NCBI GenBank assembly: GCA_963662715.1
Contig: OY759724.1
Span: 460,670-524,669, forward strand
DNA length: 64,000 bases
Source: Candidatus Omnitrophota bacterium
Lineage (GTDB): Bacteria; Omnitrophota; Gorgyraeia; Zapsychrales; JANLHA01
Reading direction: 5' to 3'
Shown: in pieces, positions 29,089-57,915 of the stretch
Layout of the letters: each line of letters opens with the position of its first letter
How positions within the stretch are numbered: position 1 is the first letter of the stretch
Made by a program: the position numbers and the translations under genes
The notes under the pieces: generated by a model
Told to the model about the DNA's origin: nothing
What the model saw: the letters and a program-made list of their open reading frames with translations, nothing else
The model's database searches: none

Positions 29089-29099
29089 ACGACCGAGCC

Positions 29100-29873: not shown

Positions 29874-29898
29874 CGTAACGGGTGGCCTGGAGAGCCTT

Positions 29899-31269
29899 TT
29901 ACGGTTCCGCATTCAGAAAAACAATTAACAGCGTGGCGAGCGGGAAAATCTGCAGAATAAGCCGGCTGGCCGTATTATGCGAGTTGACGTGAACGGATAA
30001 AACAGAAGAAAATATCGCGAACATCAGGAATATCGATATAAACATGACGAGCCCGCCCAAAAGAACCTGAAGATTAACATCTTTCAATACTTTTCGCCGA
30101 TGAACAACCAGGCTCACGCACAACAGCAGCCAGGTGAGATTCCAGTTCGCCGACAGGAACAGACTCTCCCCGAATATTTTCATGACCGGAAGAATCGTCT
30201 CCTGCGGATTGCGGAAGTTCAGCGAAGCATAAGCCATCGTTGAAATGCCCCGGGACATTTTATAAACGTAATGGAGCAGCAGGATCGCCGTGCAGGGGAA
30301 CGCGTACTGCAGAAACAGTTTGGTTTTCGCCAGGCCCGGCAGGCTTTTTTCATGAAACAGAATATACATAAACAAAAGCAGTTGAACGACTAGATACGGA
30401 TTCCCTTCCACTTTTGTGAAGGTCCCGAACCCGACGAACAGGGAGGAAAGAATGAGCCAGCCTCCCTCCCGGCTTTTCCTCCACATGATCATGAAAAGGA
30501 CGGCCGAACACGTGTAATAAAGCAAGATGATATCCCGGTATTCCATCACCGCATGAAATAAAAGCAAGTTAGACGACAGAAGAAGAAAAATCCCATACAG
30601 CGCCCATTTCCTATTTATCAACTTATACAGGCAGTGACTGTAAATCAGCACAAAAGTCACAAAGTACAGCGGAAAAAAAATCTTGGTCAACTGGTCTTCC
30701 CAGAAACCGAAGTTACAGGAACTCCAGATAAAAAGGAAGGGCATCAGTAAAGGATAAACCGGGTACGGCACATGGGGCAAATTCTTCAGAGAGCCGTCGT
30801 AATAAAACAATTTTGCGTTATGCAGACTCGTTGAAAAAGAATCCCAGCCATATATGGGTAATTCAACGGCCCGGTTAAAAATAAAGAGCACATAATAGAT
30901 GCTTATGCTGAGAATCAAAGCGTGAACCAGTTTTTCCTTGCCCGTATACTCTTCCGAGAAAAAGCTGCCGCCCCACAGAGAATCCCCGTCCGCAAGAAGA
31001 CGGGACTTCCCCCCTTTATACTTCCTCATGCCGGCTATAAAGCATAAAACAATAAGAACGAGCTGGAAGAGGATAATCGCCTGCGGCCGGAATCCGATGC
31101 CGAGGATATCTAACAGGAGCATACCTTGCGAGAGGACGCCCAGCCCTAAGCCGTAAGACACGCTCATAACGACAAGCCAGGGCAACCGTATCGGCAGCAA
31201 ATTCAGGACGCCGAAACCGAGGATTAAGGGAAGAAGTATCGTGAGGACTAATGGAAAAACATGGGACAT
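29899..31269 (-). CDS. polytopic integral membrane protein (≥10 TM; possibly a GT-C-like or polymerase/ligase-like glycosyl-processing protein)
   Basis: Continuous hydrophobic helices, no soluble domain; lies within the GT2/GT-C cluster. Confidence 0.45.
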   Translation of the reverse strand: MSHVFPLVLTILLPLILGFGVLNLLPIRLPWLVVMSVSYGLGLGVLSQGMLLLDILGIGFRPQAIILFQLVLIVLCFIAGMRKYKGGKSRLLADGDSLWGGSFFSEEYTGKEKLVHALILSISIYYVLFIFNRAVELPIYGWDSFSTSLHNAKLFYYDGSLKNLPHVPYPVYPLLMPFLFIWSSCNFGFWEDQLTKIFFPLYFVTFVLIYSHCLYKLINRKWALYGIFLLLSSNLLLFHAVMEYRDIILLYYTCSAVLFMIMWRKSREGGWLILSSLFVGFGTFTKVEGNPYLVVQLLLFMYILFHEKSLPGLAKTKLFLQYAFPCTAILLLHYVYKMSRGISTMAYASLNFRNPQETILPVMKIFGESLFLSANWNLTWLLLCVSLVVHRRKVLKDVNLQVLLGGLVMFISIFLMFAIFSSVLSVHVNSHNTASRLILQIFPLATLLIVFLNAEP

Positions 31270-31270
31270 A

Positions 31271-31873
31271 TCAAGGGTTCTTTCTGACCGCTAACAGATT
31301 GTTCTCATTGACTTCATAAGCCACCACATAATTCTCCGGGACCGCATCACGGGCGTTTTCCTTGTTGAAATAGACGATGCATTCCGGAGGCGTCTGCTCA
31401 TGCGCCCGCAAGTTCACCTTGGGCAATAAGGCGTAGGCGATGATACGCAATGCGGTGGAGCCGGGATCCACGGAAGTATCCAGATCCGAGACTAAAACGC
31501 CCCGGCACGTCCCGGGGAAATTCCGCAACAATTCCCGGGAAAAATTATACGGCCCGCCGAAAAACAAAGATCTCTTTTCATGAGCGCTCAGGGAACGGAT
31601 CTTGGCATGCTGCATCTGAAAATACAGCATATGCCCCAGCGTCTGCAATACAGTTATGATGACGAAAAATGCCGTAACGAGACCGAGGGCTGATTTCTTC
31701 GGGTCAAACGGACCGGCGGCCAGCCCCCGGCCCCGTCTCAGCCCGCAAAAACAACACCCCAGCAAAAACAGCACGCCGATCATGATATAAATTTGAGAAT
31801 ACATCACCGCACTCTCACCGCGGAATCCGTTGAGAAACGGCTGGGGGTACAAACCTTTTAAAATATCCGACAT
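31271..31873 (-). CDS. membrane protein, function unknown
   Basis: Two N-terminal TM helices then a soluble domain; 1-nt gap to the upstream membrane protein gene. Confidence 0.4.
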   Translation of the reverse strand: MSDILKGLYPQPFLNGFRGESAVMYSQIYIMIGVLFLLGCCFCGLRRGRGLAAGPFDPKKSALGLVTAFFVIITVLQTLGHMLYFQMQHAKIRSLSAHEKRSLFFGGPYNFSRELLRNFPGTCRGVLVSDLDTSVDPGSTALRIIAYALLPKVNLRAHEQTPPECIVYFNKENARDAVPENYVVAYEVNENNLLAVRKNP

Positions 31874-31989
31874 ATTATGCCCTCACAAACACTATCCCCT
31901 CGTCAACTTACGGCCGTATCCCTTCCGGGCAGCAACAAGCACAGCCGCTCTTCGGGGACTCCCCCCGAAGATAGAGACAATATCGCCGG

Positions 31990-33435
31990 TTAAAAATAAC
32001 ACATATTGTTTATAAAACTCACATTGATATTAATGAGAACCGTTTTGAGCAGGCTTACGATTAACAACCCCGTCCATAAAATATACGATAATTTCTTCAG
32101 GACATCCTGTGGCATGAACATGATTTTTTGAAAAACAAAAGCCCACGTATGCGCGCCCAATATCATTAAGAAAGGAATCGCCATCAGAATATACCGGGAC
32201 TGGTAATTCCCGTAAAGTGAATAAAAAATAAAATAGACGATGACATTCATTTTCATCCAGCCAAGAAAGCGTGCGTCTTCCGGGGTTTTCATAAAAAAAG
32301 CCGCGTAAGCCACAACGGATAACAGCGAAAACTCCACAAGTTTCCGCAAATAAAACAAACAGCCGTATTCCTGGATAAAATCCGCATGGAACCATGTTGT
32401 CTGGGGGAAGTGAGAGAAAGAGCCCCCCCTCATCAAGGGTTCCAACAAAAAATACGCGAGAAACAGGATGACGGACGGACGGATGATACGGATATGGTCG
32501 GCCTTAAACTGAAAGCCCGGTTCCGCCCCGGCCTTTTTCCGTTTAGCCGCAAGGATAACAGCACCAAAGAAACAGGCTAAAAGAACCAGAATAAATATCC
32601 GGCTTTTCACAGAAACAGAAAAGCCGTGTTCTCCGAGGAATTGATAAATATAATTCCCCCCGTAGACATGGAAATTCCAGAAAATCCACGGGACGGCCAT
32701 CAGTATCGGCAAAAAAAGGCTTATGAGGAACAAAGGTTGTTTGAGCGTTCTTCTGTCATAGAAATATACCGACAGCAGGACAGAAATACTTGTTAAGAAA
32801 CCGGGATATTTTGTGAGTCCGGCCAACCCCACAGAGCAGCCCCCCCACAAAAACAGCGCAGGATTATGGGTCTGAACTCCTTTGATATAGAAATAAACGG
32901 CCAAAAGGACAAAAAACGTCAACGTCGTGGACAACCATATCTTTTGGGAACAAATAATGCTGACGGGATCGCTGGCAGCAAGCAACGCAGCCAACAAACT
33001 GACTTTACGGCTGCAGCAGGACCGGCTCAAGAGATAGACACAGGGAATGGTCAGGCAGCCGAAAACAAGTGAAACGAATATAACGGCAAACGGTTTAGTC
33101 CCGAAGATCTTCAAGGATAAAGCGACAAGATAAGAATATACCGGAGGATGCTTAAAAAGCGGTCTGAACATATACGGCGGGAGTCCTTCGGGAGAAGAAT
33201 GGTGTTCAACAAATCCCTGTGTGTTATAGGCCAACGGATCTTTTTTCAGCTGGCGGGCGATACAAAAATACACATTTTCGTCAGTCGTCACCCGCTTTTC
33301 TCTTGTGCTGATGCTGAAGGCCGCAAATCTTGTCCCGAAAGAGAAAACCGTAATAACGGATAATAACACAAAAACCAGAACAGACCGGCTCTTTTCCGAT
33401 GCGGGTACCCGTTTAATGAGATTCAGTGTATGCAA
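31990..33435 (-). CDS. GT-C-fold glycosyltransferase of the ArnT/PMT (GT39/GT83) type
   Basis: N-terminal TM + first-loop motif (…FGTRFAAFSISTREKRVTTDENVYFCIARQL…FKHPPVYSYLV…), then >10 TM helices; 481 aa. Confidence 0.6.
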   Translation of the reverse strand: MHTLNLIKRVPASEKSRSVLVFVLLSVITVFSFGTRFAAFSISTREKRVTTDENVYFCIARQLKKDPLAYNTQGFVEHHSSPEGLPPYMFRPLFKHPPVYSYLVALSLKIFGTKPFAVIFVSLVFGCLTIPCVYLLSRSCCSRKVSLLAALLAASDPVSIICSQKIWLSTTLTFFVLLAVYFYIKGVQTHNPALFLWGGCSVGLAGLTKYPGFLTSISVLLSVYFYDRRTLKQPLFLISLFLPILMAVPWIFWNFHVYGGNYIYQFLGEHGFSVSVKSRIFILVLLACFFGAVILAAKRKKAGAEPGFQFKADHIRIIRPSVILFLAYFLLEPLMRGGSFSHFPQTTWFHADFIQEYGCLFYLRKLVEFSLLSVVAYAAFFMKTPEDARFLGWMKMNVIVYFIFYSLYGNYQSRYILMAIPFLMILGAHTWAFVFQKIMFMPQDVLKKLSYILWTGLLIVSLLKTVLININVSFINNMCYF

Positions 33436-33679
33436 GGCAATAGAATTGATTTAGACGTCTAGGGTTAAAGGATTTGTCTTATTAGTCTAATTCTTTTAGT
33501 TTTTAAAAATTATAGTATAGCCCCCTGCGTCTTACAACTATAAAATATGTCACCTGCCCCGCCTTCTCTTAACATGATCTATAATAGGTGCCTTCCGGGA
33601 AACCACCCGTTATCGCTTTTTTCCAAAAGTTATTATGCTATAATGCTACAAATCGATTTTTCAAACATCCGGATAACAC

Positions 33680-34456
33680 ATGAATCTTACTAAAGAACTA
33701 GAAATATCCCAAACAGCCGCACAGCGGGCCGCGGAAGCCATTTTAGACATATATCACGGCCGGGCATTTCAAGTCGAGATGAAAGACAATAAAAGCCCGC
33801 TGACTTCAGCCGACAAGAAAGCCAATGACATTATTGTTAAAACCCTCTCCGAAACCTTCCCGGACTATGCGCTGCTGTCTGAGGAATCCCAAGACGACCG
33901 CCGCCGGTTAGCCAATAAATGGTGTTGGATTGTCGACCCTCTGGACGGCACGAAGGAATTCATAAAAAGAAACGGGGAGTTCACGGTCAATATCGCGCTT
34001 TCCTATGAAAACAGGGCCGTGCTCGGGGTGATCTATGTCCCGGTGACGCACGAAATGTATTATGCGGTGAAAGGTCAAGGGGCCTATCATGTGAAAAACC
34101 ATCATGCTTGTAGGATTTATGTTTCCGAGCGGAAGAAAGACATACGGCTTGTCATGAGCCGGTCACATGCCTCGGAACAGCTGCAGCGTGTTATCGATAA
34201 AAACGCGATCACCGATATCAAAAAATCCGGCAGCTCTTTAAAGGGGTGCCTGGTGGCCCAGGGCGCAGCAGAGATTTATTACCGCTTCAACCCCACGATG
34301 GAATGGGATACGGCGGCGATGCAGTGCATTGCAGAAGAAGCCGGAGGGATTTTCCGGCAATTGGATGACTCCGAAATGTTGTATAACAGGGAAAACAGCT
34401 TAAACAGCCGGGGATTCTATGTCCTTAACTGTGCGGACAACAAACTGGAACTCTGA
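33680..34456 (+). CDS. cysQ: 3'(2'),5'-bisphosphate nucleotidase CysQ (inositol monophosphatase family)
   Basis: WIVDPLDGTKEF metal-binding motif; …SEES… upstream acidic motif; 258 aa. Confidence 0.8.
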   Translation: MNLTKELEISQTAAQRAAEAILDIYHGRAFQVEMKDNKSPLTSADKKANDIIVKTLSETFPDYALLSEESQDDRRRLANKWCWIVDPLDGTKEFIKRNGEFTVNIALSYENRAVLGVIYVPVTHEMYYAVKGQGAYHVKNHHACRIYVSERKKDIRLVMSRSHASEQLQRVIDKNAITDIKKSGSSLKGCLVAQGAAEIYYRFNPTMEWDTAAMQCIAEEAGGIFRQLDDSEMLYNRENSLNSRGFYVLNCADNKLEL

Positions 34457-34596
34457 ATCTAAGAAATAACATTCCAACCTTTTACTGGGCCCACCTATAG
34501 TACCACTACTATAAACGACAATACATTAGTTAAGATTATTTGCCTTAAGATATCGCGGAAGGTCTCATGAAATGGGTCAAAGAGGATTCTTTTCCG

Positions 34597-36399
34597 TTAA
34601 GAAGATAAATTGGTATGAATCAATTCTAATATTTTCTCAACCACTTGCTCTCGCGGACTGTGTTCTGCAACATGCAAATCAGCCATCCCGGATGAGGAAT
34701 CCTCATCCCCCACCCAGACCGTTTTGATCTGGTCGTCATCAATCGAGGTATGAATGATCTCCAGGTCAGACTTTTGCAGCTCTATCGCCGTTATAATCAG
34801 TATTGTCCCCATATTCAACATGATGTTGGCGACCTCCGCAAGCCGGCGGAAATGTTCCGGGTGAGTGTCGGGATCATTCGTTAAATCAGCATCCAGACCG
34901 TGAATGACGTTACCGATCCCCAAGAAGTAAACCAGCTTTCCCTGCATAAAGAGCCTTTCCTCCAAGGCCCGGGCTATTTCTTTGCGAGGGGCATCCCGCC
35001 GTCCGGTTATTAAAATCAAAGCGGCTTTCTGCCCATATCTTTCAAAACGCTGCTCCCGGGAAATATTGCTCATAATCCACCGGTAATTGCGTTCGATGAC
35101 CATTTGCCTGACCTGGGATTGGGCGTCCTCGAGCGCCTCATAAATAATCCCGCCGCCGGATATGTTGTTTTGGTCAACAATAACGAATCTGCTGGTCGGG
35201 CTTATTCTGTCAGCCAGATCAAAGGCGATGGCCCGCGGCATTTTCAAAATGCACTTTGCCACCTCGTGGCGGGCAATCTTCTGGGCCGTATCAGTGCTGT
35301 CCAGGTTGGACGCGTTGAGGACTTGTTCTATTTTTTCAATCTCTACCGGGACTTTCATAGTCCCGAGTTTGAGATGATATGTTTTACCCAGCTCCATGGG
35401 AGCCCGTCCCATCCAGAATAAATTAACCTTAATTCTGGAGGTGACCTCCGGGGGATGGCCATGAAAAGCGGTTAACATTTCTCCTCTTTTAACATAAATC
35501 TGCTCGGTTAACGTCAGTCCAACAGCATAACCGGCCCCGATCCCCGGCACAGCAGGCTGGTTAAACATTTCAATGGATTTGACATAGCTCTTCTTGCCGG
35601 AGGGATAAAAAACAACTTCATCCCCCACGTTGACGGTTCCGGTACTGATCGTTCCGCTGATGATACGGCGGTCATCCTGGAACTTCGTGAATTTATAAAT
35701 ATCCTGGACCGGCATCCGCAACGGCAAATTTTCATCAATATCCTTTTTATGAAATTCATCTAATATTTCAAAGACGGTTTTCCCGAAGTACCAGCTTAAA
35801 TTCTCCTGCCGTTCGGAAATCATATCTCCCTCCCGTCCGCTGACGGGGATAAAACATGTCGCCTGAATTCCAATCTTTTCCAAAAATTCCTGATACTGTT
35901 GACTGATTTGTCTGAAAACATCCTCCTCATAGGAAACGAGGTCCATCTTGTTCACGAGGACAGCGACCTGTTTTATTCCCAGCATAGACAGCATGTAGCC
36001 GTGTCGGCAGGAATTCTCCTGAACCCCCTCCTTGGCGTCGATCACTAAAAGGGCCGCTTCGGCCCGCGCAGCCCCGGTGACCATATTCTTCAAGAACTCG
36101 ATATGTCCCGGAGCATCAATAATGATGTAGTGGCGTTTGGACGTCTTAAAAAAAACCCTGGCAGAATCTATGGTAATGCCCTGGGCTTGTTCATCCTTTA
36201 AAGCGTCTAACAGAAAAGCATACTCGAAGGGTTTGGAATTATTTTCACATTGCTGACGGACCTGCTCAAGCTTCCCCTGGGGCAGAGAGCCGGTATCTGC
36301 CAGCAGGCGGCCCACGATAGTGCTTTTGCCGTGGTCAACGTGTCCCACAATAACGATATTCATGAATTGAGATGTCATAATATTAAAGAGTTGCCGCAA
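34597..36399 (-). CDS. cysN: sulfate adenylyltransferase GTPase subunit CysN fused to a degenerate APS-kinase-like C-terminal domain
   Basis: G1 [16 protein letters not shown]3 DAPGH, G4 NKMD. The C-terminal ~170 aa align to the APS kinase fold (…[11 protein letters not shown]…) but the P-loop is replaced by [11 protein letters not shown]. Confidence 0.85.
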
Positions 36400-36460
36400 C
36401 TATATATTGATTAACCGAAACAATGTCCTGAACAAAACTCGAAAGCCGGCCGGTTCCGCC

Positions 36461-37342
36461 TTACATATAACCTTCTCTTCTCAAGGTTTCCAGCCCCCCG
36501 CCGTCATCTTTATCCTGCGCCCGGCCGGAACGCTCAGCGATATTGGAAAATTTACCGGTCCTTAATTCTTCGATGATATCATCGACGTTCTTAGCGGTAG
36601 ATTCCACCGGGAGAGTACAGGGATAACAGCCGAGAGACCGGTAGCGCGTTCCCTTTCCCTGATCATAATACAGAGAAACGGTCGGAATCCCTTCTTTTTT
36701 GATATATTCCCAGATATTCAACTCCGTCCAATCCAGCAAAGGATGAATCCTTAAATGTGTGCCTTCAGAAAAATCTGTATTAAACTGATCCCAAAATTCC
36801 GGCGGCTGATCGCCAATATCCCAAAGGCTCTCTTTGTCCCTGGGGGAAAAATACCGCTCTTTGGATCTTGAGCCCTCTTCATCGGAGCGAATGCCGACGA
36901 TGACCCCGGTGAAGGACTCGGTGCCTGTATATTCCTCATAAAGATCCTTGTCATGATTGAAACGGAAACGCGGCCCTGTTCCCTCCAGCGTACTCTTAAG
37001 GGCGTCGGTTTTAAGAAGCCGGCAGCAGCGCAGACGGTCCACTTGTCCGTCCGGAAAAGTTTGTTTTTCTGCCAGAGCCGCCTGATTCTGGCCGTAAAAC
37101 ATATTCAAATGCCATTCCCGGGTGAGCCGGTCACGATATTCGATCATTTCCGGGATCTTATACGCTGTGTCGATATGCACCAGGGGGATCGGGACGTGCC
37201 CGAAAAACGCCTTGCGGGCAAGCCACAACAGCACAGTACTGTCCTTGCCAATGGACCAGAGCATGCAAAGATTTTTAAAATTCGCATAGGCTTCTCTCAA
37301 GATATAAATACTTTTATTTTCGAGTTCTGTTAAATGGTCCAC
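36461..37342 (-). CDS. cysD: sulfate adenylyltransferase subunit 2 CysD (PAPS-reductase-like ATP-PPase fold)
   Basis: PP-loop [12 protein letters not shown]; 293 aa; immediately upstream of cysN. Confidence 0.85.
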
Positions 37343-37370
37343 ATCCGGTGCCCTCGTTAAAAATACACGC

Positions 37371-38096
37371 CTATATATTCAAATAGCGGTCTATTTGTTT
37401 TTTAAGGCAAGAAAATGTTTCTTCTACCGTCTGCCCCTCGGTCTTGATAACAATTTCAGGGTTCTGCGGTCTTTCATAAGGATCATCGATACCCGTAAAA
37501 TATTTGATTTCTCCGGCCCGAGCCTTTTTATATAATCCTTTAACATCACGCTGTTCACATATCTCAATCGGCGTGTCGACATGAATCTCCACAAAATTTT
37601 GACACAAATCGCGGACAAAATTGCGGGCATCCTGATAAGGCGAAACAAAGGAAGACACAACAATAACTCCGTTACGTTCAAGCATAGAAGCAAGAAATCC
37701 GACCCTCTTGATGTGATTATCCCGTTCTTCTTTTGTAAAACCGGTCTTAGGGAAGACCGAACGGACGACATCCCCGTCTAAACGCTCCACCCGCAATCCC
37801 TTTTCGGCGATATAATCGTAGGCCCGGCTGGCCAGCGCGCTTTTCCCGGACCCGGATAATCCCGTAAACCAGAGAACAAAAGGTTTGACGCTTTTTTTGC
37901 CGAAAGAGATTTTATTCCAGACACGTTCATGAAAGAAATATAAAATCATCTTTGCAATAATTTCAATGCCTCCCACAGACACGGCCAGGAAAAATCTTTT
38001 CGTAAAAAAATAAACAATGGTGCACGTCGTAATCGTTGCCCAAATACGCCAGGAAATGGTCTTTAATATCGACCGGCTTCTTTTTTCAATATACAT
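37371..38096 (-). CDS. cysC: adenylyl-sulfate (APS) kinase CysC with an N-terminal ~70-aa two-TM (DUF2061-like) extension
   Basis: Intact P-loop [13 protein letters not shown] and LDGDVVR motifs. The N-terminus ([31 protein letters not shown]…[17 protein letters not shown]) is hydrophobic. Confidence 0.8.
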
Positions 38097-39305: not shown

Positions 39306-39722
39306 TTAAACTTTCTGACAGCTGTCGCAAATCCCGTCTAACTGCAGAAAATGGTCAACAATCCTGAAGCCATTGACACTTCTCTTGCGAAAAAGATCGC
39401 ATCCCGCAATCTCTCCGACTTTGCCGCACCGGATACAGACAATATGATGATGGTGGACCCCGCCTTCAGCATGGCACAGGCCGTAATAACGGTTATTGTC
39501 AAACTTATGTATGCGGGTCAAAATCCCATACTCTGTTAAAGACTCAAGATTCCGGTAAACGCCCGGCAGGCCGCACTGCCGAAATTTCCGGCGGAGTTTT
39601 TCATATACTTTCTCCGGAGTCAAAAACTTATTGTTTTTATAAAAGATTTCGATAATAGCGATTCTTTTGGGAGTGCTTTTTAAAGGACAACTTTGAAGTT
39701 TTTCAAGATATCTGTCCAGCAT
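39306..39722 (-). CDS. Fur-family metalloregulator (Fur/Zur/PerR type)
   Basis: Winged-helix N-domain; HHHH + CxxC (HHHHIVCIRCGK) and C-terminal CDSC metal sites. Confidence 0.75.
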   Translation of the reverse strand: MLDRYLEKLQSCPLKSTPKRIAIIEIFYKNNKFLTPEKVYEKLRRKFRQCGLPGVYRNLESLTEYGILTRIHKFDNNRYYGLCHAEGGVHHHHIVCIRCGKVGEIAGCDLFRKRSVNGFRIVDHFLQLDGICDSCQKV

Positions 39723-39826: not shown

Positions 39827-40684
39827 TTAAGGAGTAATTAATTTTAAAGATTTAGGCAGAATCTTAATGTGAACAGACTTATACCTCAAAATCTCCCCGT
39901 CGCTTTGAAAATGCTGCTTCGGATCGGATGTGATTTCGATTTCCCGGACCTGCCAGTGCCTCAGGAAGCCACGAAAAATATTCTTTCTTCCTTCAAAAAT
40001 ATTTTTTAAATCCGTATGATTGATAATAATAACGTCCAGCAACCCGTCATCGACCTGAATTTTAGATGATATGGAGATTCCCGGCAAACCCAAATTTCCG
40101 CTATTGGCGACAATGCACGCCAGGCCTCTTTCCTCGTACTCCTTCCCATCTAATGTTAACTGATACAGAGACGGAGTGGTTTTTAACGCCGCTTTTAAAC
40201 TGTTCAGCGCATAGGCCAGCCACCCGATCCTGGTCTTGATATCCGGTTTTGTCTCTCTGACAACTTCGGCCTCAAAACCGCTGCTCACTCTTATCAAAAA
40301 ATACTTGTGCCCCATCTGTCCCACATCAATCTCCCGGATACGATGCTGGCCCAGGCACAAATTAACCGCTTTCTCAACATCCTGGGCTATTCTTAATTCA
40401 TTGGAGATCACGTTAGCCGTGCCGCCCGGGAGAATAAGCAACGGGGTTTTTCCGCCAATCAAGGCTCCAGCGGCTTCCTGGACCGTTCCGTCCCCGCCGT
40501 AAATAACGATCACATCCGCGTTTTCAGCAACCGAAAGCTTCACAAACCGGGAAACATCCTCTTTGTTTTTAGTGACGTGCACGTCCCAGGACACCTTCTG
40601 GCGGGACAACACTTTATTTAAAGTGTAAAGGACCGGGTATTTCATGCCCGATGAGGGATTTATGATAATGCTTAACCGTTTCAT
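39827..40684 (-). CDS. DAGK-catalytic-domain lipid kinase (YegS/sphingosine-/ceramide-kinase-like)
   Basis: LSIIINPSSG…VIVIYGGDGTVQEA…LPGGTAN are the canonical DAGK_cat motifs. Confidence 0.75.
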   Translation of the reverse strand: MKRLSIIINPSSGMKYPVLYTLNKVLSRQKVSWDVHVTKNKEDVSRFVKLSVAENADVIVIYGGDGTVQEAAGALIGGKTPLLILPGGTANVISNELRIAQDVEKAVNLCLGQHRIREIDVGQMGHKYFLIRVSSGFEAEVVRETKPDIKTRIGWLAYALNSLKAALKTTPSLYQLTLDGKEYEERGLACIVANSGNLGLPGISISSKIQVDDGLLDVIIINHTDLKNIFEGRKNIFRGFLRHWQVREIEITSDPKQHFQSDGEILRYKSVHIKILPKSLKLITP

Positions 40685-40806
40685 AAAATATAATAATGTT
40701 TTATTTCTAAATCTTTTTCTGACAGCCCACCTTCAGAATACACCACATCTTTTTTCGGGATCGAAAAAAAGACATCGGGATGCGTTTCGGCTTTATGCCG
40801 GCTCTT

Positions 40807-41199
40807 TCAGGCCCGCAGACTCTTATAGGAAATAAAAAAGATAATCATAAAAATCAGATCAAAGAATGCAAACGGGACCCAAATCCAGGGCATTTGACCT
40901 GCCAGCCAGTGCGGGAATACGACTAAGCAGTAGGAGAGCTTAATCAGGACAGCATAAATGATAAGACTCCTGTTGGCAAGGGGGTCCCTGGCGATATTAA
41001 AAAGCATATAGGCGAAAATGACCAAAATGCAGGCCGGGAACTGGACATACCCGATATGATTGGGCGGGGGGATCTGTACGGCATGAAAAATGGCCAGCGG
41101 CGCAATAAGAAAAGCGGCTCCGAGAATACCGTCATAAAACGCTGCCACGATATAAAAGGGTTTGATCCATTTAGGGATATTCATATTTTCCTCTTTCAT
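40807..41199 (-). CDS. small four-TM membrane protein, unknown function
   Basis: Hydrophobic throughout; lies between the UbiA gene and lipid kinase 1. Confidence 0.4.
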   Translation of the reverse strand: MKEENMNIPKWIKPFYIVAAFYDGILGAAFLIAPLAIFHAVQIPPPNHIGYVQFPACILVIFAYMLFNIARDPLANRSLIIYAVLIKLSYCLVVFPHWLAGQMPWIWVPFAFFDLIFMIIFFISYKSLRA

Positions 41200-41234
41200 T
41201 TTTTATTTATAAAATATTGTATCAATTTTTTCCG

Positions 41235-42206
41235 CTAAGCCAAAGCATCTTTATGAAAATCAAATAACCAGCCAATAAGGACAAAATTGATCAGGTAAAG
41301 CATCCCGGAAAGAAACGGATGCAGCAAAGCTATAAAACCGGTCTCATAGAGTACCGCGCCCCTGAATGTCCATTTCAGCGAGTAATATGTCTTTTCACCG
41401 TGTGCGTTCCGAAAAAACAACACGGCCGTGTACTGCATGATCAGAAAAGTCAATACCATCAATCCCGTAAAAAAGGGATTAATACAGCCTTTCCAGGGAT
41501 CGAAAAAGAACATGAAAACAACAATCCCGAAGGGAAGGCTGCTCATCATAACGTTCAGATATTTTGCTTTTCCGGGAGACAACTTGACAACAATCGTTTT
41601 GATCCCGGCCGCCTTATCCCCCTGATAATCTTTAAAATACGTATAAAAAGCGACTGCCACATTCATGAGAATCACGCCTAAAGCCAGGACAGCTAACTGA
41701 GCATCCGCCATAATTTCCAGCCCTTTTCCGTTCAAACACATGGCACCGTAATAAAGACACGGCGCAACAAGACAGCCAAAAACAATATTCCCCAGGATAA
41801 GAATTCTTTTGGAATATTCATAAACGATATTGAGGAGAAAAACGAGCACATACAGGGTTAAAGCATATGGATTTAATAGAAGCGTTATTCCGGCCCCCAA
41901 TACAAATAATCCCGCGCTTATACCCACAGCCGAACCGACCGGAAGTCGTCCCGTGACAAGCGGCCGGCGGGGCGCATTGATTCTGTCTTCTTTAAGTCCC
42001 AACAGATCATTGATGACCTGGTTGACGCCCCACCCCACAAAAACGACGGTCAAAACAAGCGCCGTTCTAAAAGGAGTGATCTCTGCCCCGCAGAATGCTA
42101 TCCCCAGGCACCCTGTCATGCCGGAGATAAAAAACAAATACGGACGCATGGATTTTATATAATTTAAAATAACACTCCTGGAAAATATCATACTAGACCT
42201 TTTCAA
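41235..42206 (-). CDS. UbiA-family prenyltransferase
   Basis: First Asp-rich motif NDLLGLKEDRIN (NDxxDxxxD-type); second motif YFKDYQGDKAAG; ~8 TM helices. The start overlaps the upstream gene by 14 nt. Confidence 0.75.
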   Translation of the reverse strand: MKRSSMIFSRSVILNYIKSMRPYLFFISGMTGCLGIAFCGAEITPFRTALVLTVVFVGWGVNQVINDLLGLKEDRINAPRRPLVTGRLPVGSAVGISAGLFVLGAGITLLLNPYALTLYVLVFLLNIVYEYSKRILILGNIVFGCLVAPCLYYGAMCLNGKGLEIMADAQLAVLALGVILMNVAVAFYTYFKDYQGDKAAGIKTIVVKLSPGKAKYLNVMMSSLPFGIVVFMFFFDPWKGCINPFFTGLMVLTFLIMQYTAVLFFRNAHGEKTYYSLKWTFRGAVLYETGFIALLHPFLSGMLYLINFVLIGWLFDFHKDALA

Positions 42207-44556
42207 TCAGACGCATTTTTTTATACAGGGGGACCTCTTCCTTGTTTTGAAACTGCTCCATAAGCTGCAGCGCATCCTCACCCGTTACTGGGAATGCCGT
42301 AATCTTCTTCTCTTCTATATACCGGCGTATCCTGCCATGCTCGGAATTACACAGCCAACTTAGACACGGCTTCTTAAAATGTGCCCTCATACGGTCAAAA
42401 ATCACAGAAAAAGGCTCCTCTTGAACATTGCCGCAGGAAACATTTAAAAATTCACAGGGCTGAATTTCTCCGTGAGCGTTCACATAAAAACGCTCGATTC
42501 CCCCGGCCGTGCATCCGAAGGCCTCGGGGGAAGATTCAAAAACCTGCATGGAAAGCGACGGGAAATCCCGAAGCTCCCTGGCCTTGTTCAAACGCCAGTG
42601 ATCGGCGCAAAGACGGGCGATCAGCTCCCGATCCATTAAAGTGTTCCCCCTCCGGAGCCATCCCCCGGCAGGTTTTTCATGAATAACCTGCACAAAACTG
42701 CAGCCTAGTTCCCTGCCAAGCTGCAATATCTTTTTTATGCCGTCATCCATTATCATCTCCCGGGAAGGACAGCAATTGATGACAGCCGTAACACCTGTAT
42801 CTGCAAATATGCGGATCGCCTTGCAGGCGATCCGAAAAGCTCCTTCAAAGCCCACAAACTCATCGTGCTTTTCAGCCTCCCAATGATGCAGGGAGACCAT
42901 CACTCCGAAAAGTCCGGCCTGCCGGAGACGCCAGGCCTTTTCATAAGTTAATGTGTGCCCCGTGGTGTTCACCCAGACTTCCCTCTCAGAGTCCAGAGAC
43001 CCGATGAGTTTTAGCAAACGTTCATATTTTAATAAAGGTTCGCCGCCTTCGATATCAAACATACTTATACCGGCATGCTGAATATCACGGGCGAGCCGCA
43101 AGAGATCGGCTTCCGGCAGGTCTTCACCGGCGTCACGTTTTTGATAGCAGTGCCGGCAGTGATACCCGCAGGCTTTTGTCATGGAAAAAACAACTGTTGT
43201 CGGATAGGTTGCATCATCGGTGATCAAAAATTTATCGATGGCTTTATAAAAAGCCCTGCTTGGAAAAGCCGGAAGATACAAATGTATTTTATAGACATTA
43301 TTTATTTTTACGGCCTTGTTATACCCGAGGACTTTCGAGAGGAGAAGCATTCTTTTAACGAAAAAAGCATACTGTTTCAAGGTTATCGCCCCCTTCAACA
43401 AACGGACGAAATACCGCAAAAAAATTGTCAGGCCCATTGTCACATCTAATAATATGCGGCCGAAACCGACAACAAACTGCTGTTGCAAGGGCCTCTGTCT
43501 GTCATAGGGGATTGGCAGGAAACCATTCTGCCGCCACCAGCGGACTGTTTCTGCGACACCCTGCTCCAGGGACACCGTCTGTTTAAAACCCAAAACATCC
43601 CCGGCTCTGGCCGTAGCATAAACATTATGACAATAAAACATCTTGACCCGGGCCCGGGTCAAAAGAAAAGGTTCTTTGGCTCCCAGGAGCTTCGCCATAA
43701 GTTCCAAAAACACGGCTGAAGGATAAAAGACCCACAAAGGGAGATATACCGGCGGTCTTATCCCTAAATTCCGGCAATATAAATTAAAATATTCCCGGAT
43801 GTTCGGGGCCCGGTCATTACCCATGTTAAAAACATGAACCCCGGATAAATCCTTTTCCAAGGCGAGCAGCATGCCCCGGACCAGATCTTTCACATGAATA
43901 ACGTGAAATCTATTGGTGCGTCCCATCGGCATGACCCGCATCCCCTGCAAGACAGCGCGGCAGAATTCATACGGCCCCGAATGAAACTCCCTGGGGCCAT
44001 AAACCCAGACCGGACGTATCACGACCAAATTCAAATCACCTTCCCCGGCTATGCCAACGGCTTCCTGCTCCGCCAGCATTTTCGTTTCGCGGTAATAATT
44101 CATATCTGACGGAAAAATAGCCGACAGAAAATATGGCATGTCCGGCCGGTAAGGGGCTTCTTCCGGCTTGGGCTTTTCTTCATCCTCTTCACCCAAAACA
44201 GCAATGCTGCTTACCAAAACAACCTTTTTCACTCTTTGCTCCTTGGCCGCACGAACAACATTGCGGGTCCCCTGAACATTGATTTCATGAAAGTCTTTCT
44301 TCCGGCCCCAGTCAGAAGCCAAAGCGGCCACATGAAAAACGGCGTCACAGCCGCTCATCGCTTCCGTCACTCCGGCAGAGTCCCTAATATCCCCATAGCA
44401 AATTTTGATCTTGTCTACCGGGAGAAACCGCAGATCACTGCCCGGACGCAGCAGAACCGTCACCTCATATTGACCGGCCACTAAACGGTCCACCAGATGA
44501 CTGCCGATAAACCCCGAAGCCCCGGTCACAAAGACTTTCCGTATTCCGCTGTTCAT
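42193..44556 (-). CDS. fusion protein: N-terminal extended-SDR NAD-dependent epimerase/dehydratase-like domain + C-terminal radical SAM domain with a SPASM/twitch-like Cys-rich extension
   Basis: VFVTGASGFIGSHLVDRL (Rossmann fold), YRETK (YxxxK); hydrophobic linker; CGYHCRHCY (CxxxCxxC); C-terminal FGCTAGG…GEIQPCEF…C…C auxiliary-cluster pattern; 787 aa. Confidence 0.8.
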   Translation of the reverse strand: MNSGIRKVFVTGASGFIGSHLVDRLVAGQYEVTVLLRPGSDLRFLPVDKIKICYGDIRDSAGVTEAMSGCDAVFHVAALASDWGRKKDFHEINVQGTRNVVRAAKEQRVKKVVLVSSIAVLGEEDEEKPKPEEAPYRPDMPYFLSAIFPSDMNYYRETKMLAEQEAVGIAGEGDLNLVVIRPVWVYGPREFHSGPYEFCRAVLQGMRVMPMGRTNRFHVIHVKDLVRGMLLALEKDLSGVHVFNMGNDRAPNIREYFNLYCRNLGIRPPVYLPLWVFYPSAVFLELMAKLLGAKEPFLLTRARVKMFYCHNVYATARAGDVLGFKQTVSLEQGVAETVRWWRQNGFLPIPYDRQRPLQQQFVVGFGRILLDVTMGLTIFLRYFVRLLKGAITLKQYAFFVKRMLLLSKVLGYNKAVKINNVYKIHLYLPAFPSRAFYKAIDKFLITDDATYPTTVVFSMTKACGYHCRHCYQKRDAGEDLPEADLLRLARDIQHAGISMFDIEGGEPLLKYERLLKLIGSLDSEREVWVNTTGHTLTYEKAWRLRQAGLFGVMVSLHHWEAEKHDEFVGFEGAFRIACKAIRIFADTGVTAVINCCPSREMIMDDGIKKILQLGRELGCSFVQVIHEKPAGGWLRRGNTLMDRELIARLCADHWRLNKARELRDFPSLSMQVFESSPEAFGCTAGGIERFYVNAHGEIQPCEFLNVSCGNVQEEPFSVIFDRMRAHFKKPCLSWLCNSEHGRIRRYIEEKKITAFPVTGEDALQLMEQFQNKEEVPLYKKMRLIEKV

Positions 44557-45482
44557 GAGACAATCACCTCTAAACTCTTTGGCAGCACCTCAATGGTTGC
44601 CGGGAGTTTCCCCCTCATGTCACCGTCGAATTCAATAAAGACGTCCTCCCGCTCCGAACAAACTTCAACCTTTCGGCCATAACGCATGCCCGCATGTTTG
44701 TACTCCATGAAATCACCGACATACAGTTTAGGGACGTTCGCAAGCAATGAAAACAAGCTGCCTTTTCTTAATGAGAACAAAAAAAGCTTCCCGTCATCAG
44801 GAAGCACATCACTAAAGACTCTCATCCCGGAAGCCAGATACGGATCTTTACCGACGGTTAAATTGATTAAAGATGTGAAGTCCGTCTTTTCTCCGTCTAT
44901 TTTCACTTTCAAATCAACACCCTGAAAATTCCAGACAGCTGTTAAGGAAGACACCAGCGTCCCCAGAAAATCCCCCAGGTATTTTCTATAACGTGAATTG
45001 GCCTTACCGGCGATATGCGGCCCAAGCCCCACGTTGACGCTGCTGCCGAAATAAAACACTCTTTCGTCTCCGGCCAGGTCCCGGAAAGAGACTTTGCCCA
45101 CATCAACGCTCCGGGTTCTGCCGGCCAACAAGGCTTCAAGGGCCTCATCAAGGCGGACAGGGATATGACAATACCGGTTAAAGTCAGGACTTGTTCCGAC
45201 GTGCAGTACGCCCAATGTCCTGGACGCGGCCGGGCTGTTCTGCCGCAGGCCCGTTATCACTTCACAGATCGTGCCGTCACCTCCGACAGCCACCACCACA
45301 TCATAATCCCTTTCCCCGGCCTGCCGTGATATATCGACGGCTTCATCCTTTCTCGAAGTCATCTGATAATCAAAATCAACCTTCCGGAGCTTCATTTCGG
45401 AAATAATCCGCCGGCACTGTTTATACGCACCGCCTGATCTGGCCGTCGGGTTCATAACCAAAAAATACTTCAACGGAGCCAT
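44553..45482 (-). CDS. second DAGK-catalytic-domain lipid kinase
   Basis: FLVMNPTARSG…VVVAVGGDGTICEV…LGVLHVGTSPDF; stop/start ATGA overlap with the downstream fusion gene. Confidence 0.75.
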   Translation of the reverse strand: MAPLKYFLVMNPTARSGGAYKQCRRIISEMKLRKVDFDYQMTSRKDEAVDISRQAGERDYDVVVAVGGDGTICEVITGLRQNSPAASRTLGVLHVGTSPDFNRYCHIPVRLDEALEALLAGRTRSVDVGKVSFRDLAGDERVFYFGSSVNVGLGPHIAGKANSRYRKYLGDFLGTLVSSLTAVWNFQGVDLKVKIDGEKTDFTSLINLTVGKDPYLASGMRVFSDVLPDDGKLFLFSLRKGSLFSLLANVPKLYVGDFMEYKHAGMRYGRKVEVCSEREDVFIEFDGDMRGKLPATIEVLPKSLEVIVS

Positions 45483-46660
45483 TCCGGCTTCTCCTGCTTT
45501 ATCTCCTCAAACGCTGAAATCGTTTTATCGATGTCCTCATCTTCCAGCAGGGCGTTCACCGTTAAACGGATCCGCGCCGTGTTCTTGGCGACGCTCGGAG
45601 GGATGAACGGGACGCCATAAATGCCCCGCTCGGAAAGCATTTTGGCAGCCAGGAACGTGTTTTCGCTGGTCTTAAACACAACCGACACCAGCGGGGTCGT
45701 TGAGCCGGTCAGGTTGAATCTCATCTGATCCAGGGCCTCATACAGCTTCCTGGCGAGCCGCATGATTTTTTCTCTTAGCCGGGGGTGATCTTCCACGTAG
45801 CGCAAAGAAGCGATGGTCGCTCCGGCCATAACAGGCGGCAATGCGGTTGAATAAAAATACATCGGGGCCTTATAACGGAAGCCGTCAATAATATCGGCCT
45901 TGCCGGCGATAAACCCGCCAAACGTCCCGACAGCCTTGCCGAAAGACCCGGTCATCAAATCCACATCCTGATAAGTGTCCGTCAGTTCAAGAATTCCCCG
46001 GCCTTCCCGCCCCAAGACCCCCAACCCGTGGGCATCATCAACGATCACAAAAGCGTCGTGCCTGCGGGCAACATCCGTGAGTTCTTTAAGCGGAGGGGTG
46101 TCTCCGTTGGTGCTGTAAAGCCCTTCCAGGACAATAAACTTGACGCGATAATGACAACACCGCAAGAGGGTCTTCTCAAGTTTGTTCATATCATTATGCG
46201 GGAAAATCTTAAACGCCGCTTTCGATAAGGCCACACCGTTTAACAGGGATGAATGAATCTCTTTGTCGGCAATAATAACATCGTTCTCCCCGGCCATGAG
46301 CTGAAACAGGCTCATATTGGCCTGATAACAGGAAGGAAAGACCAAAGCATCTTCCTGTTTAAGAAAACGGGCCGTAGCCAGTTCCAGTTCCCGGTTGACA
46401 GCGGACTGTCCGACGACAATAGGGGTCCCGCACAAACTCAAACCGAAAGTCTCTAAAATCTTCGTCGCCTCCTTCTTGATGACGGCATTATTAGCGATGC
46501 CCAGATAATCATTTGTTCCTAAAGAAACCATTTTTCTGCCGTTAACGGTAATTTCCCGGGCCAGCCCGCTCTGAACGATCTGATAATAGGCGTTGAAGTT
46601 TATATCGTCTGCCAGCTTTTTATCAATGTACAAGCTATCAATTAATTCTTTTTTGGACAT
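45470..46660 (-). CDS. PLP-dependent alpha-oxoamine synthase (serine palmitoyltransferase / BioF / CqsA family); Spt-like by context
   Basis: LGTNDYLGIANN substrate loop; PLP-lysine block TGSFGKAVGTFGGF; probable start MSKKELIDS; overlaps the downstream kinase gene by 13 nt. Confidence 0.8.
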   Translation of the reverse strand: MSKKELIDSLYIDKKLADDINFNAYYQIVQSGLAREITVNGRKMVSLGTNDYLGIANNAVIKKEATKILETFGLSLCGTPIVVGQSAVNRELELATARFLKQEDALVFPSCYQANMSLFQLMAGENDVIIADKEIHSSLLNGVALSKAAFKIFPHNDMNKLEKTLLRCCHYRVKFIVLEGLYSTNGDTPPLKELTDVARRHDAFVIVDDAHGLGVLGREGRGILELTDTYQDVDLMTGSFGKAVGTFGGFIAGKADIIDGFRYKAPMYFYSTALPPVMAGATIASLRYVEDHPRLREKIMRLARKLYEALDQMRFNLTGSTTPLVSVVFKTSENTFLAAKMLSERGIYGVPFIPPSVAKNTARIRLTVNALLEDEDIDKTISAFEEIKQEKPEWLR

Positions 46661-46849
46661 ACGCGTCTCCTCATGTTGTTTAACCCTGCCCTTAACTTGT
46701 TCACGTGCTGCTTTTCCGCCCCCTCTTATTCCAAAATGTGTTTCCCCCGGACAAAAGGCATGCCCTGATGACAAGAATCCCATTTCCTGGCGTCTGGCTT
46801 ACCGTGGGTGGCCGGCGTGAGGTGTGAAAATAATTTTGTCTACACAAAA

Positions 46850-46878
46850 AGTTTACCACTCAATTATTTATCTGTCAA
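46850..46878 (-). promoter_or_regulatory. candidate sigma-70 promoter for the Spt-like operon
   Basis: Minus-strand TTGACA (46878-46873) - 17 nt - TAAACT (46855-46850), ~190 nt upstream of the proposed start. Confidence 0.35.
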
Positions 46879-50078: not shown

Positions 50079-50861
50079 CTATGCTCCGGCCACAAAAAAA
50101 TAAAAAGCGGCAGCCGCCAGGACACGGTAAACCCCGAAAGCCACAAAATTATTCCGCTGGATAAAATGCAATAAAAATTTGACCCCGGCCATAGCCACAA
50201 CGAACGAGGTCACAAACCCTACAGCCAAAAACATCATTTGTTCCGTGTTTAAAGAGACGAAACCAAAACTCTTAAACAAATCCAAAGCCGTTGCCGCAGT
50301 CATCGTAGGGACGGCCAGGAGGAAAGAGAATTCCACAATCGTTTTGCGCCGCAGGCCCAAAACCAATCCTCCGACGATTGTGGCCGCTGACCGTGAGACA
50401 CCGGGGACCATCGCCAAAGCCTGAAAAAAGCCGATCAAAACCGCGTCACGGTAAGGCAGACGGCTCAGATCGTCCTTGGCATCGGGTTTCTCCTGATAAC
50501 GTTTCTCAAAAACGATCAGGAAAATCCCCCCCAGGAACAGCGCGCCCACCACGACCCCCGTGCTCCCCAAAAGAACCGTCTTGATGACCTTATAAAAAGC
50601 CAGCCCCATTATGGCCGTAGGGATAAAGGCCGCACAGATCCTCTTCAGGACCTCAATATTCACTAAGAACGACCGCGCATAAAGAACGACCACCGCTAAA
50701 ATGGCTCCCATTTGAATCGCAATCTCAAAACTCGTCAAAAAATCCGTCTGAGGAAGACCAAGAAGCTTGGCGGCAAGGATCAGATGCCCGGTTGAAGAAA
50801 CCGGCAGGAATTCTGTTAACCCCTCAACAACTCCTAAGATAAACGCGGAAAATATATTCAT
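50079..50861 (-). CDS. uppP: undecaprenyl-diphosphate phosphatase UppP/BacA
   Basis: MNIFSAFILGVVEGLTEFLPVSSTGHLIL and the second PGxSRSxxT motif (PGVSRSAATI). Confidence 0.85.
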   Translation of the reverse strand: MNIFSAFILGVVEGLTEFLPVSSTGHLILAAKLLGLPQTDFLTSFEIAIQMGAILAVVVLYARSFLVNIEVLKRICAAFIPTAIMGLAFYKVIKTVLLGSTGVVVGALFLGGIFLIVFEKRYQEKPDAKDDLSRLPYRDAVLIGFFQALAMVPGVSRSAATIVGGLVLGLRRKTIVEFSFLLAVPTMTAATALDLFKSFGFVSLNTEQMMFLAVGFVTSFVVAMAGVKFLLHFIQRNNFVAFGVYRVLAAAAFYFFVAGA

Positions 50862-57252: not shown

Positions 57253-57915
57253 TTAACGCCCTTCATTCAAAGTCACCGGGATATCAACTCTTAATCCCTG
57301 ATAATGGGCCGTGATTGTTGTTGTCCCGGGGCTCTGAGGATACATCATCGGAGGATCTATAAAAAGCACGTCCGGATTCTCGGATGAGAACTGAAGCTCC
57401 GGGGATTTACTTAAATCCTTTTCCTGCCCGCTTTGGGTAACTCCAATGATTCTCGGGACAAGAGCAGGCGACATGTCGTTTAAGATCAAGGCCCCTTCAG
57501 GATATTCCAGCCGTTGATAAACTTCGTCATTCGCCAGATGAAATTTGATGTAGGAAATACCGGAGCTTCCCTCCGCCCCTCTTAACTTAACATGAAGACT
57601 CAGGACCACTTTGTTTGTGTCCGGGACGACGACATCGACAATACCTGCCCCCTGGACAGGATATTTTTCCAAACCGCCGAGCTCTTTGGTATCCCATTTC
57701 AAATAACCTTCGGTAATCGTTTCCCCGGGCCATGCGAGTTCAATCTGAATGGTTTGTCCAGGATGGACAATGTCATTCTCCCCCACGTTCAAAGCCTTAA
57801 CTTCAATAGGGGCGGCCAGCCCCTGCCGAGGCATAAGAAACGCAAAGAAACAAAGGGCCAACAAGATGAAAAAAGGTGGCGTTCTAGCCTGATTTAAGGT
57901 GTATTGACAGGTCAT
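57253..57915 (-). CDS. secreted protein with a C-terminal bacterial Ig-like (Big_2-like) domain
   Basis: Signal peptide LLALCFFAFLMPRQGLAA; C-terminal …TTITAHYQGLRVDIPVTL; 4-nt ATGA overlap with the upstream HprK-like gene. Confidence 0.45.
   Translation of the reverse strand: MTCQYTLNQARTPPFFILLALCFFAFLMPRQGLAAPIEVKALNVGENDIVHPGQTIQIELAWPGETITEGYLKWDTKELGGLEKYPVQGAGIVDVVVPDTNKVVLSLHVKLRGAEGSSGISYIKFHLANDEVYQRLEYPEGALILNDMSPALVPRIIGVTQSGQEKDLSKSPELQFSSENPDVLFIDPPMMYPQSPGTTTITAHYQGLRVDIPVTLNEGR

Follow-up and report, generated by a model that had tools for sequence, protein, structure and literature searches.

The window examined here is the whole 64,000-nucleotide stretch at positions 460,670 to 524,669 of contig OY759724.1 (assembly GCA_963662715.1), from a Candidatus Omnitrophota bacterium. 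It carries a compact group of minus-strand genes for an alpha-oxoamine synthase (AOS), a diacylglycerol kinase (DAGK)-type lipid kinase, a short-chain dehydrogenase/reductase (SDR) fused to a radical S-adenosylmethionine (rSAM) domain, a UbiA-superfamily prenyltransferase and a small membrane protein. The window is best explained as carrying the smallest version of a conserved cassette that has spread horizontally and produces a specialised membrane lipid by oxygen-free chemistry. There is little doubt that the cassette is a dedicated and conserved biosynthetic unit. Its product is probably a membrane lipid assembled from four components: an amino acid, a fatty chain, phosphate and an isoprenoid chain. 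The product favoured here, a sphingoid-like amino-alcohol phosphate that would first be prenylated on O or N and later undergo oxygen-independent oxidative tailoring, is assigned a probability of roughly 0.4 on the basis of sequence comparison. What is new is an undescribed combination of known enzyme families in a lipid biosynthetic cluster. A preliminary description, made from the DNA sequence alone, had already called the combination undescribed, and no account of such a gene cluster was found in the literature searched.

A word-indexed search returned few close relatives of the SDR::rSAM fusion. The contigs of these relatives, one of them from an Omnitrophota metagenome-assembled genome (MAG), carry the five-gene set as well, with AOS, kinase, SDR::rSAM and UbiA accompanied by a protein of about 126-132 aa, and their flanks are unrelated. 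In a pattern scan of species-representative genomes, one per species, 253 related loci were confirmed; they span more than 12 phyla, and their carriers are mostly anaerobic. These include Omnitrophota MAGs, MAGs labelled Planctomycetia, Riflebacteria, Bacteroidales, Ignavibacteriales, Cloacimonas, Clostridia, Acidobacteriota, Armatimonadota, Verrucomicrobiota, Lentisphaerae, Kiritimatiellia and two DPANN-binned contigs. Cultured carriers are the clostridia Desulfosporosinus hippei DSM 8344, D. lacus DSM 15449 and Desulfosporosinus sp. HMP52, together with Mangrovibacterium lignilyticum.

Gene linkage, whose loss in relatives would have told against the preliminary description, was counted in 39 non-redundant loci whose sequence extends at least 6.5-7 kb to either side of the rSAM gene, and it is conserved. 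All four other core families accompany the rSAM in 31 of the 39, which brings five enzyme families together. Another 5 loci have three of the four, with the missing gene at or beyond the locus edge in at least 2 of them, and the last 3, all from Omnitrophota, retain only the rSAM and the small membrane protein. The conserved unit is written here as AOS, DAGK-type kinase, SDR::radical-SAM, UbiA and the 125-aa four-helix membrane protein; it includes neither the second kinase (kinase 2) nor the Fur-family regulator found beside it in the window. The earlier proposal of one functional unit accordingly holds for the five families, which travel together in dozens of distant genomes, and fails for the second kinase, which is not conserved.

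Using tblastn and clustering of open reading frames (ORFs), the loci can be sorted into four gene orders in which the SDR and rSAM are either fused or unfused. Type A, the form in this window and in Omnitrophota, reads (MarR)-AOS-kinase-SDR::rSAM-UbiA-membrane protein. Type B, from Firmicutes and the FCB group, reads (HTH)-UbiA-OYE-ACP-AOS-kinase-ThiL-like-KAS-SDR-rSAM, where OYE is an old yellow enzyme-type reductase, ACP an acyl carrier protein and KAS a FabF-like ketoacyl-ACP synthase. Type C, from the PVC group and others, reads UbiA-rSAM-kinase-ThiL-like-OYE-AOS-SDR, and type D, from Riflebacteria, reads UbiA-OYE-MMPL-KAS-ACP-DH-AOS-SDR-rSAM-kinase-ThiL-like, the gene between ACP and AOS encoding a polyketide synthase-type dehydratase (DH). 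The other versions thus add an ACP, a KAS, an OYE reductase, a ThiL-like kinase, an AMP-ligase, or MMPL and LolA-like lipid exporters to the core, and MarR or XRE regulators accompany the cassette in relatives. No ThiL-like, OYE, KAS or ACP gene was found in the window by tblastn. Apparent UbiA::rSAM fusions in high-GC loci were rejected as ORF extensions in the wrong frame.

Several of these additions bear on the nature of the product. The Riflebacteria cassettes enclose an MMPL/RND transporter gene (loci L016, L050, L051 and L059) or have a gene for a LolA-like protein beside them (L014, L015 and L053), an arrangement that argues for a lipid product destined for export to the envelope. The lipid context proposed in the preliminary description is strengthened by these genes and by the ACP, KAS, AMP-ligase and ACP::AOS fusion of relatives. 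In Mangrovibacterium, a 734-aa NodU/CmcH-type carbamoyltransferase (L035:5778-7982) occupies the place where the KAS gene would be. The ACP::AOS fusion (L046:198-1658, 486 aa) belongs to a type A cassette on a Woesearchaeota-binned contig, and a Nanoarchaeota-binned contig (L047) has archaeal-looking flanks with Rad50-like and SIS-type isomerase genes. Unless these two contigs are mis-binned, the cassette may occur in DPANN archaea.

Within the window, the ORF listing gives six consecutive minus-strand ORFs at 39827-46783 in the order AOS, kinase 1, SDR::rSAM, UbiA, 130-aa ORF and kinase 2, just as first described. The AOS (longest ORF 45470-46783) very probably starts at the ATG at 46660, which gives a protein of 396 aa (45470..46660) rather than 437 aa, because GGAG lies 6 nt upstream, homologues have 395-396 aa and the protein collection contains no 437-aa form. 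The AOS is followed by kinase 1 (44553..45482), the fusion (42193-44556), UbiA (41235..42206), the small four-helix membrane protein (40807..41199) and kinase 2 (39827..40684). The TTG start of UbiA is uncertain, with an alternative ATG 15 nt downstream, and the small membrane protein is annotated at 125 aa (P0062) within a longest ORF of 130 aa. Pfam searches return the domain labels originally given to these genes, with the qualification that the SPASM match is weak and below its cutoff.

From the coordinates, the AOS and kinase 1 overlap by 13 nt (45470-45482), kinase 1 and the fusion by 4 nt (44553-44556), and the fusion and UbiA by 14 nt (42193-42206). The corresponding overlaps are the same or similar in homologous loci L002, L004 and L009, at 13 or 19 nt for the first, 4 nt for the second and 14 or 11 nt for the third, so the gene packing is conserved and not accidental. 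These overlaps agree with the preliminary description; the co-translation it read from them is something that we infer from the overlaps and do not observe. The promoter that it reported is also present, as a candidate sigma-70-like site (TTGACA-17-TAAACT with a TG extension, 46850..46878, minus strand) that matches 10 of 12 consensus positions and precedes the likely AOS start by about 190 nt. It is a consensus match only, in a region where such matches are frequent (18 observed versus 11.2 expected). A riboswitch or other structured leader before the AOS was considered and rejected, since the leader has no Rfam match and its fold is no more stable than that of shuffled sequence (z = 0.93).

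The AOS is a pyridoxal phosphate-dependent enzyme (Aminotran_1_2, E = 1.7e-49) with intact catalytic Lys, His and Asp motifs, including DDAHGLG and SFGK. It falls below the cutoff of every curated family with which it was compared. The best single NCBIfam score is that of bioF (TIGR00858, 331 bits versus a cutoff of 426.45); the other models compared are the 2-amino-3-ketobutyrate CoA ligase (KBL) models NF005394 (304 versus 460) and TIGR01822 (264 versus 493), three serine palmitoyltransferase (SPT) models (288 versus 500, 266 versus 640 and 219 versus 670), aminolevulinate synthase (ALAS; 223 versus 339) and CqsA (NF005526, 214 versus 428). All five identities were rejected on these grounds for the window's enzyme and likewise for the AOSs of types B, C and D, including the type C and D enzymes that reach 377-398 against the NF005394 cutoff of 460. 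Neither assignment that would have undone the preliminary description, BioF or CqsA, is therefore supported; no bioA, bioB or bioD gene is linked in any cassette examined, and no CqsS-like sensor kinase is linked to the AOS in the window or in those cassettes. The term Spt-like, however, is not established either. The best PDB matches are nearly equal (Sphingobacterium multivorum SPT, 216 bits; Thermus BioF/KBL, 212 bits; Escherichia coli KBL, 203 bits), and the AOS shares 31% identity with S. multivorum SPT and 33-34% with KBL references.

The acyl substrate of the AOS is better constrained than its amino acid. An ACP gene lies directly upstream of the AOS gene in many loci, the FabF-like KAS of relatives has an intact Cys-His-His triad, and L035 encodes an AMP-ligase in the vicinity of its cassette, while L054 encodes a homologue of that enzyme. 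Together with the ACP::AOS fusion, these features point to a fatty-acyl supply for the AOS.

The extended-SDR domain of the fusion (aa 1-350, 43507..44556, minus strand) is a probable NADPH-dependent ketoreductase. It matches Epimerase (PF01370) with E = 7.9e-40, has intact GxxGxxG and YxxxK motifs, and resembles lipid reductases of the HpnA (174 bits), OleD and 3-beta-hydroxysteroid dehydrogenase types. Agreement with the ceramide reductase CerR is at the level of this family. An Arg or His follows strand beta-2 in all cassette SDRs examined. A basic residue at this position confers a preference for NADPH, and by this rule the domain is expected to act as a reductase.

The rSAM domain (aa 356-787, 42193..43491, minus strand) matches Radical_SAM (E = 2.1e-14) and, below the cutoff, SPASM (E = 1.2e-3). 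Exactly six Cys residues are invariant across 69 sequences: C463, C467 and C470 of the CX3CX2C core, which is accompanied by the GGE motif EGGEP, and the auxiliary residues C682, C701 and C736. As the full seven-Cys SPASM motif is absent, the C-terminal part is classed as twitch-like. The AlphaFold2 model (pLDDT 90.5) has SkfB, SuiB, MoaA and BlsE as its nearest folds. By motifs and predicted fold, the domain is a member of the radical-SAM SPASM/twitch class with a predicted three-Cys auxiliary site. It shares the core and a C-terminal Cys-bearing beta-hairpin with the twitch or partial-SPASM enzymes MoaA, BtrN and BlsE, whose substrates are small molecules, and with the peptide maturases SkfB and SuiB, and like MoaA it has three Cys for an auxiliary cluster; in MoaA, the open iron of this cluster binds the substrate. 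The domain differs from these enzymes in that the TM-score is only about 0.5 and identity 13-18%, and in its SDR fusion and unique N-terminal helical extension, two long helices and a hairpin that are conserved even in unfused versions. Only 188 proteins among 1.84 billion representative sequences match the domain at E <= 1e-30.

The small four-helix membrane protein (125-130 aa) belongs to no Pfam family and is the partner of the rSAM in Omnitrophota-type cassettes. In the three Omnitrophota loci mentioned above (L005, L025 and L045), the rSAM and the small membrane protein stand alone, with no AOS, kinase or UbiA gene within 8 kb, and in L005 and L045 a PIG-L deacetylase gene and a GNAT gene follow the pair. 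The pair may act there on a lipid made elsewhere.

The UbiA protein matches the PF01040 model (99.8 versus a cutoff of 34.2; E = 2e-28). The window's protein has NDLLGLKED in place of NDxxDxxxD, and all 48 cassette UbiAs carry NDxxGxxED(R/K)xNAPxRP, with Gly for the middle Asp of the first Asp-rich motif, while keeping the second motif, KDYxGD. Judged by this universal NDxxG signature, they are a distinct subfamily. Digeranylgeranylglyceryl phosphate (DGGGP) synthase and chlorophyll synthase both prenylate oxygen, and similarity to models of these two types is far stronger than to aromatic prenyltransferases: DGGGP synthase-like models give E = 1e-26 to 1e-20, versus 2e-9 for the 4-hydroxybenzoate enzyme, and phosphoribosyltransferase models match weakly (E = 4e-5). 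The nearest solved relative is the DGGGP synthase of Methanocaldococcus jannaschii (PDB 6m31, 56 bits), and the acceptor proposed below would, as in that archaeal step, be a phosphorylated single-tailed C3 backbone. The cassette enzyme is nevertheless not a DGGGP synthase proper, scoring 93.5, 78.9 and 73.6 against DGGGP synthase-like cutoffs of 269, 353 and 296. In contrast to the archaeal system, the cassettes have NDxxG and not NDxxD, the proposed backbone is an amino alcohol from C-C condensation and not glycerol, and no geranylgeranylglyceryl phosphate (GGGP) synthase or glycerol-1-phosphate dehydrogenase is linked in the cassettes examined. A DGGGP synthase gene reported in an archaeal-lipid context in Cloacimonadota is co-localised with a GGGP synthase gene (PMC7852524); it was rejected as an instance of the cassette because it is a different locus. 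In L007/L008:16743-21269 (minus strand), an unfused cassette has a divergent UbiA gene followed by FixX, FixC and electron-transfer flavoprotein (FixAB) genes, an arrangement that hints at flavin-dependent reduction of the prenyl chain.

Both lipid kinases have DAGK_cat and YegS_C domains and a GGDGT motif, and both pass the YegS/Rv2252/BmrU model TIGR00147 (kinase 1, 125.7; kinase 2, 132.1; cutoff 118.65). The best PDB matches of kinase 1 are bacterial diacylglycerol kinases of the DgkB type, and its family is kept in 54 loci. Kinase 2 is only 22% identical to kinase 1 and has no counterpart as a second kinase match in any other locus, so it is treated as a local addition outside the conserved cassette. 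Bacterial members of this fold phosphorylate dihydrosphingosine (PMC9045371), and a bacterial ceramide kinase belongs to the same family (10.1101/2023.05.01.538943).

From the gene content, conservation, intact catalytic motifs and family affinities described above, we infer the following substrates, order of steps and product. The AOS would condense an amino acid with a fatty acyl thioester to give a long-chain alpha-amino ketone; in relatives, the thioester would be an acyl-ACP made or loaded by the cluster-encoded ACP, KAS or AMP-ligase. The NADPH-type SDR domain would reduce the ketone to a sphingoid-like amino alcohol, and the DAGK-type kinase would phosphorylate a hydroxyl group. The UbiA enzyme, resembling DGGGP synthase, could then accept the phosphorylated single-tailed base as a mimic of GGGP and place a polyprenyl chain on a free O or N, which would yield a two-tailed phospholipid. 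The twitch-type rSAM domain would follow with an oxidative modification that needs no oxygen, for example a desaturation, a cyclisation or a cross-link, for which the open iron of its auxiliary cluster may hold the head group. In the Omnitrophota-type clade, the small four-helix membrane protein would assist the rSAM. On this scheme the cassette resembles bacterial sphingolipid synthesis in part and, in part, the second step in the formation of archaeal ether lipids. The preliminary description had likewise proposed a sphingoid or aminolipid backbone that is phosphorylated, reduced, prenylated and rSAM-modified; the prenylation of the backbone itself and the order of the steps are the parts of this scheme to be read conditionally. 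In its most specific form, the product would be a sphingoid-isoprenoid hybrid phospholipid with an archaeal-style prenyl chain and radical finishing, made by anaerobes of more than 12 phyla and possibly by DPANN archaea. This narrower version is regarded as rather doubtful.

A number of observations weigh against the proposed product. The amino-acid substrate of the AOS is not readable from its sequence, and the AOSs themselves appear to split deeply: in a rough neighbour-joining tree with three references, they form two deep clades, A+B and C+D, of which C+D is nearer to the references, and the distance of one clade from the other is at least as large as its distance from KBL or SPT. The AOS may therefore have been recruited twice. 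The type C SDR is only 22-27% identical. The universal Asp-to-Gly change in the first UbiA motif suggests unusual handling of the diphosphate, and neither a polyprenyl synthase nor a head-group transferase recurs in the cassette flanks. Finally, most versions of the cassette add a ThiL-like kinase beside the DAGK-type kinase and an OYE reductase, neither of which the simple scheme needs and which point to a diphosphate intermediate and an enone.

These last genes lead to the strongest of the rival explanations, in which the DAGK-type kinase and the ThiL-like kinase (or, in the window, the second DAGK) make an amino-alcohol diphosphate that UbiA uses as an electrophilic donor, so that the base is transferred to polyprenyl phosphate or another acceptor, or is cyclised. 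ThiL converts a monophosphate to a diphosphate. The DAGK gene adjoins an AIRS-family gene in types B, C and D, the encoded AIRS protein is clearly ThiL-like (139 bits versus 55 for SelD and 37 for HypE), the window, which lacks the ThiL-like gene, has a second kinase instead, and such a donor would perhaps account for the altered diphosphate-binding motif in 48 of 48 UbiAs. Precedents are hydroxymethylpyrimidine diphosphate (HMP-PP) in thiamine synthesis, phosphoribosyl diphosphate (PRPP) with the UbiA-type decaprenyl-phosphate phosphoribosyltransferase, and the plant chain of phytol kinase, phytyl-phosphate kinase and prenyltransferase. The likeness to ThiD/ThiL/ThiE and to plant VTE5/VTE6/VTE2 lies in the adjoining lipid kinase and ThiL-like kinase genes of most cassette versions, together with a UbiA enzyme downstream, whereas the cassette kinase families are distinct from VTE5 and VTE6 and the window's version lacks the ThiL-like gene. 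In type A cassettes L001, L004, L009 and L044, moreover, both a ThiL-like gene and a second kinase are missing from the vicinity, primary alkyl diphosphates make poor SN1 donors, and the phosphoribosyltransferase models match UbiA weakly. On balance this explanation is unlikely. A lower likelihood still attaches to a prenylated N-heterocycle serving as a quinone-like membrane redox carrier or signal, for which UbiA would prenylate a hydroxypyrrole or pyrrolinone ring assembled by KAS, ACP and AOS. These three genes occur together in types B and D, as in the prodigiosin module (PigJ KAS, ACP and PigH AOS), with an intact KAS triad; OYE could reduce a ring enone, and the presence of MarR or XRE regulators also speaks for this reading. 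The cassettes differ from that module in lacking prolyl-carrier and oxidase genes, and the PigJ model gives 77 bits versus a cutoff of 900. Since types A and C, including the window, have no KAS or ACP, the scheme could apply to types B and D only; it also leaves the lipid kinases unexplained, and UbiA resembles O-prenylating enzymes more than it does aromatic C-prenyltransferases.

Two more conventional readings fare worse. Ordinary ceramide synthesis by Spt, bCerS and CerR with a sphingoid or ceramide kinase, and with UbiA and rSAM as unrelated neighbours, draws on the resemblance of the AOS, the epimerase-family SDR and the GGDG kinase to Spt, CerR and CpgB/dhSphK1 (10.1101/2023.05.01.538943; PMC9045371), and on the dedicated ACP or acyl-activating enzyme of cassette relatives. 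As the preliminary description had noted for the window, there is no bCerS-type N-acyltransferase: no acyltransferase gene was found among the six genes or in the scanned near flanks, and none recurs in about 80 loci, although neither a bCerS-specific model nor whole genomes were searched. The lack of a recurrent acyltransferase indicates that the cassette is not the canonical ceramide route. It also differs from that route in an AOS outside all three curated SPT families, in a UbiA and an rSAM that are obligatory and linked as tightly as the other genes (the rSAM by fusion to the SDR), and in carriers that are mostly anaerobes outside the known sphingolipid producers. Ceramide synthesis is accordingly considered very improbable. 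The least probable reading takes the AOS as a housekeeping enzyme (BioF, KBL with a threonine dehydrogenase-like SDR, or the CqsA type) beside unrelated genes, or the rSAM as a maturase of ribosomally synthesised peptides. The leading bioF score and the peptide maturases SkfB and SuiB among the nearest rSAM folds speak for it. Against it, all AOS scores lie below cutoff, the linkage to the kinase, UbiA and ACP is kept across phyla, no bioA, bioB, bioD or CqsS gene recurs in the cassette, and an Omnitrophota carrier encodes a BioY biotin transporter nearby. Against the maturase role, no short precursor ORF or PqqD-like domain was found in the cassette genes or recurs there; unlike SkfB and SuiB, the rSAM has no peptide substrate encoded with it.

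The surroundings of the cassette in the window are not shared with its relatives. The Fur-family regulator (39306..39722, minus strand) is a separate transcription unit with its own perfect TTGACA-16-TATAAT directly upstream (39784-39757, minus strand). At 28132-38096 lies a module for the synthesis of phosphoadenosine phosphosulfate (PAPS), with a CysN/C-like protein of 600 aa, CysD of 293 aa and an adenylylsulfate (APS) kinase fused to a DUF2061 membrane domain, next to genes for a CysQ-like phosphatase, a PMT_2/ArnT-like GT-C transferase, a GT2 and a methyltransferase. The region may serve envelope sulfation or glycosylation. Both the Fur gene and the PAPS module are adjacent as the preliminary description stated, and neither is conserved beside the cassette elsewhere. 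A sulfonolipid or capnine link through the PAPS module was rejected because of this lack of conservation and because the cysteate acyltransferase match (159 bits) is below the SPT match. A few kb upstream of the cassette, an ORF at 50079-50861 (minus strand) has an N-terminal motif typical of undecaprenyl-diphosphatase and is a putative UppP/BacA. At the far end, a filamentous-haemagglutinin/TpsA-type protein (59966-64000, minus strand; PF05860 and PF18886) runs off the window (complete form 1574 aa, P0127), and the adjoining 656-aa ORF (57912-59882, minus strand) may be its TpsB transporter.

Sphingolipid-like lipids and archaeal-type prenyltransferases of bacteria are active questions, and oxygen-free routes of lipid modification are poorly known. 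The cassette offers a compact gene set with recognisable sequence signatures: the NDxxG first motif of UbiA, the six invariant Cys of the rSAM and the recurrent SDR::rSAM fusion. Because cultured carriers are known, the product can be sought by lipidomics or by expression of the five genes. Should it be a small signal or cofactor, the cassette would still represent an uncharacterised pathway of wide phylogenetic reach. Should it be a new membrane lipid, it would serve as a new biomarker and bring new enzymology to three enzyme families. If the lipid were in fact a sphingoid-isoprenoid hybrid, the boundary between sphingolipids and archaeal ether lipids would become less sharp, and the hybrid could be where unassigned nitrogen-bearing isoprenoid lipids in anoxic sediments come from.

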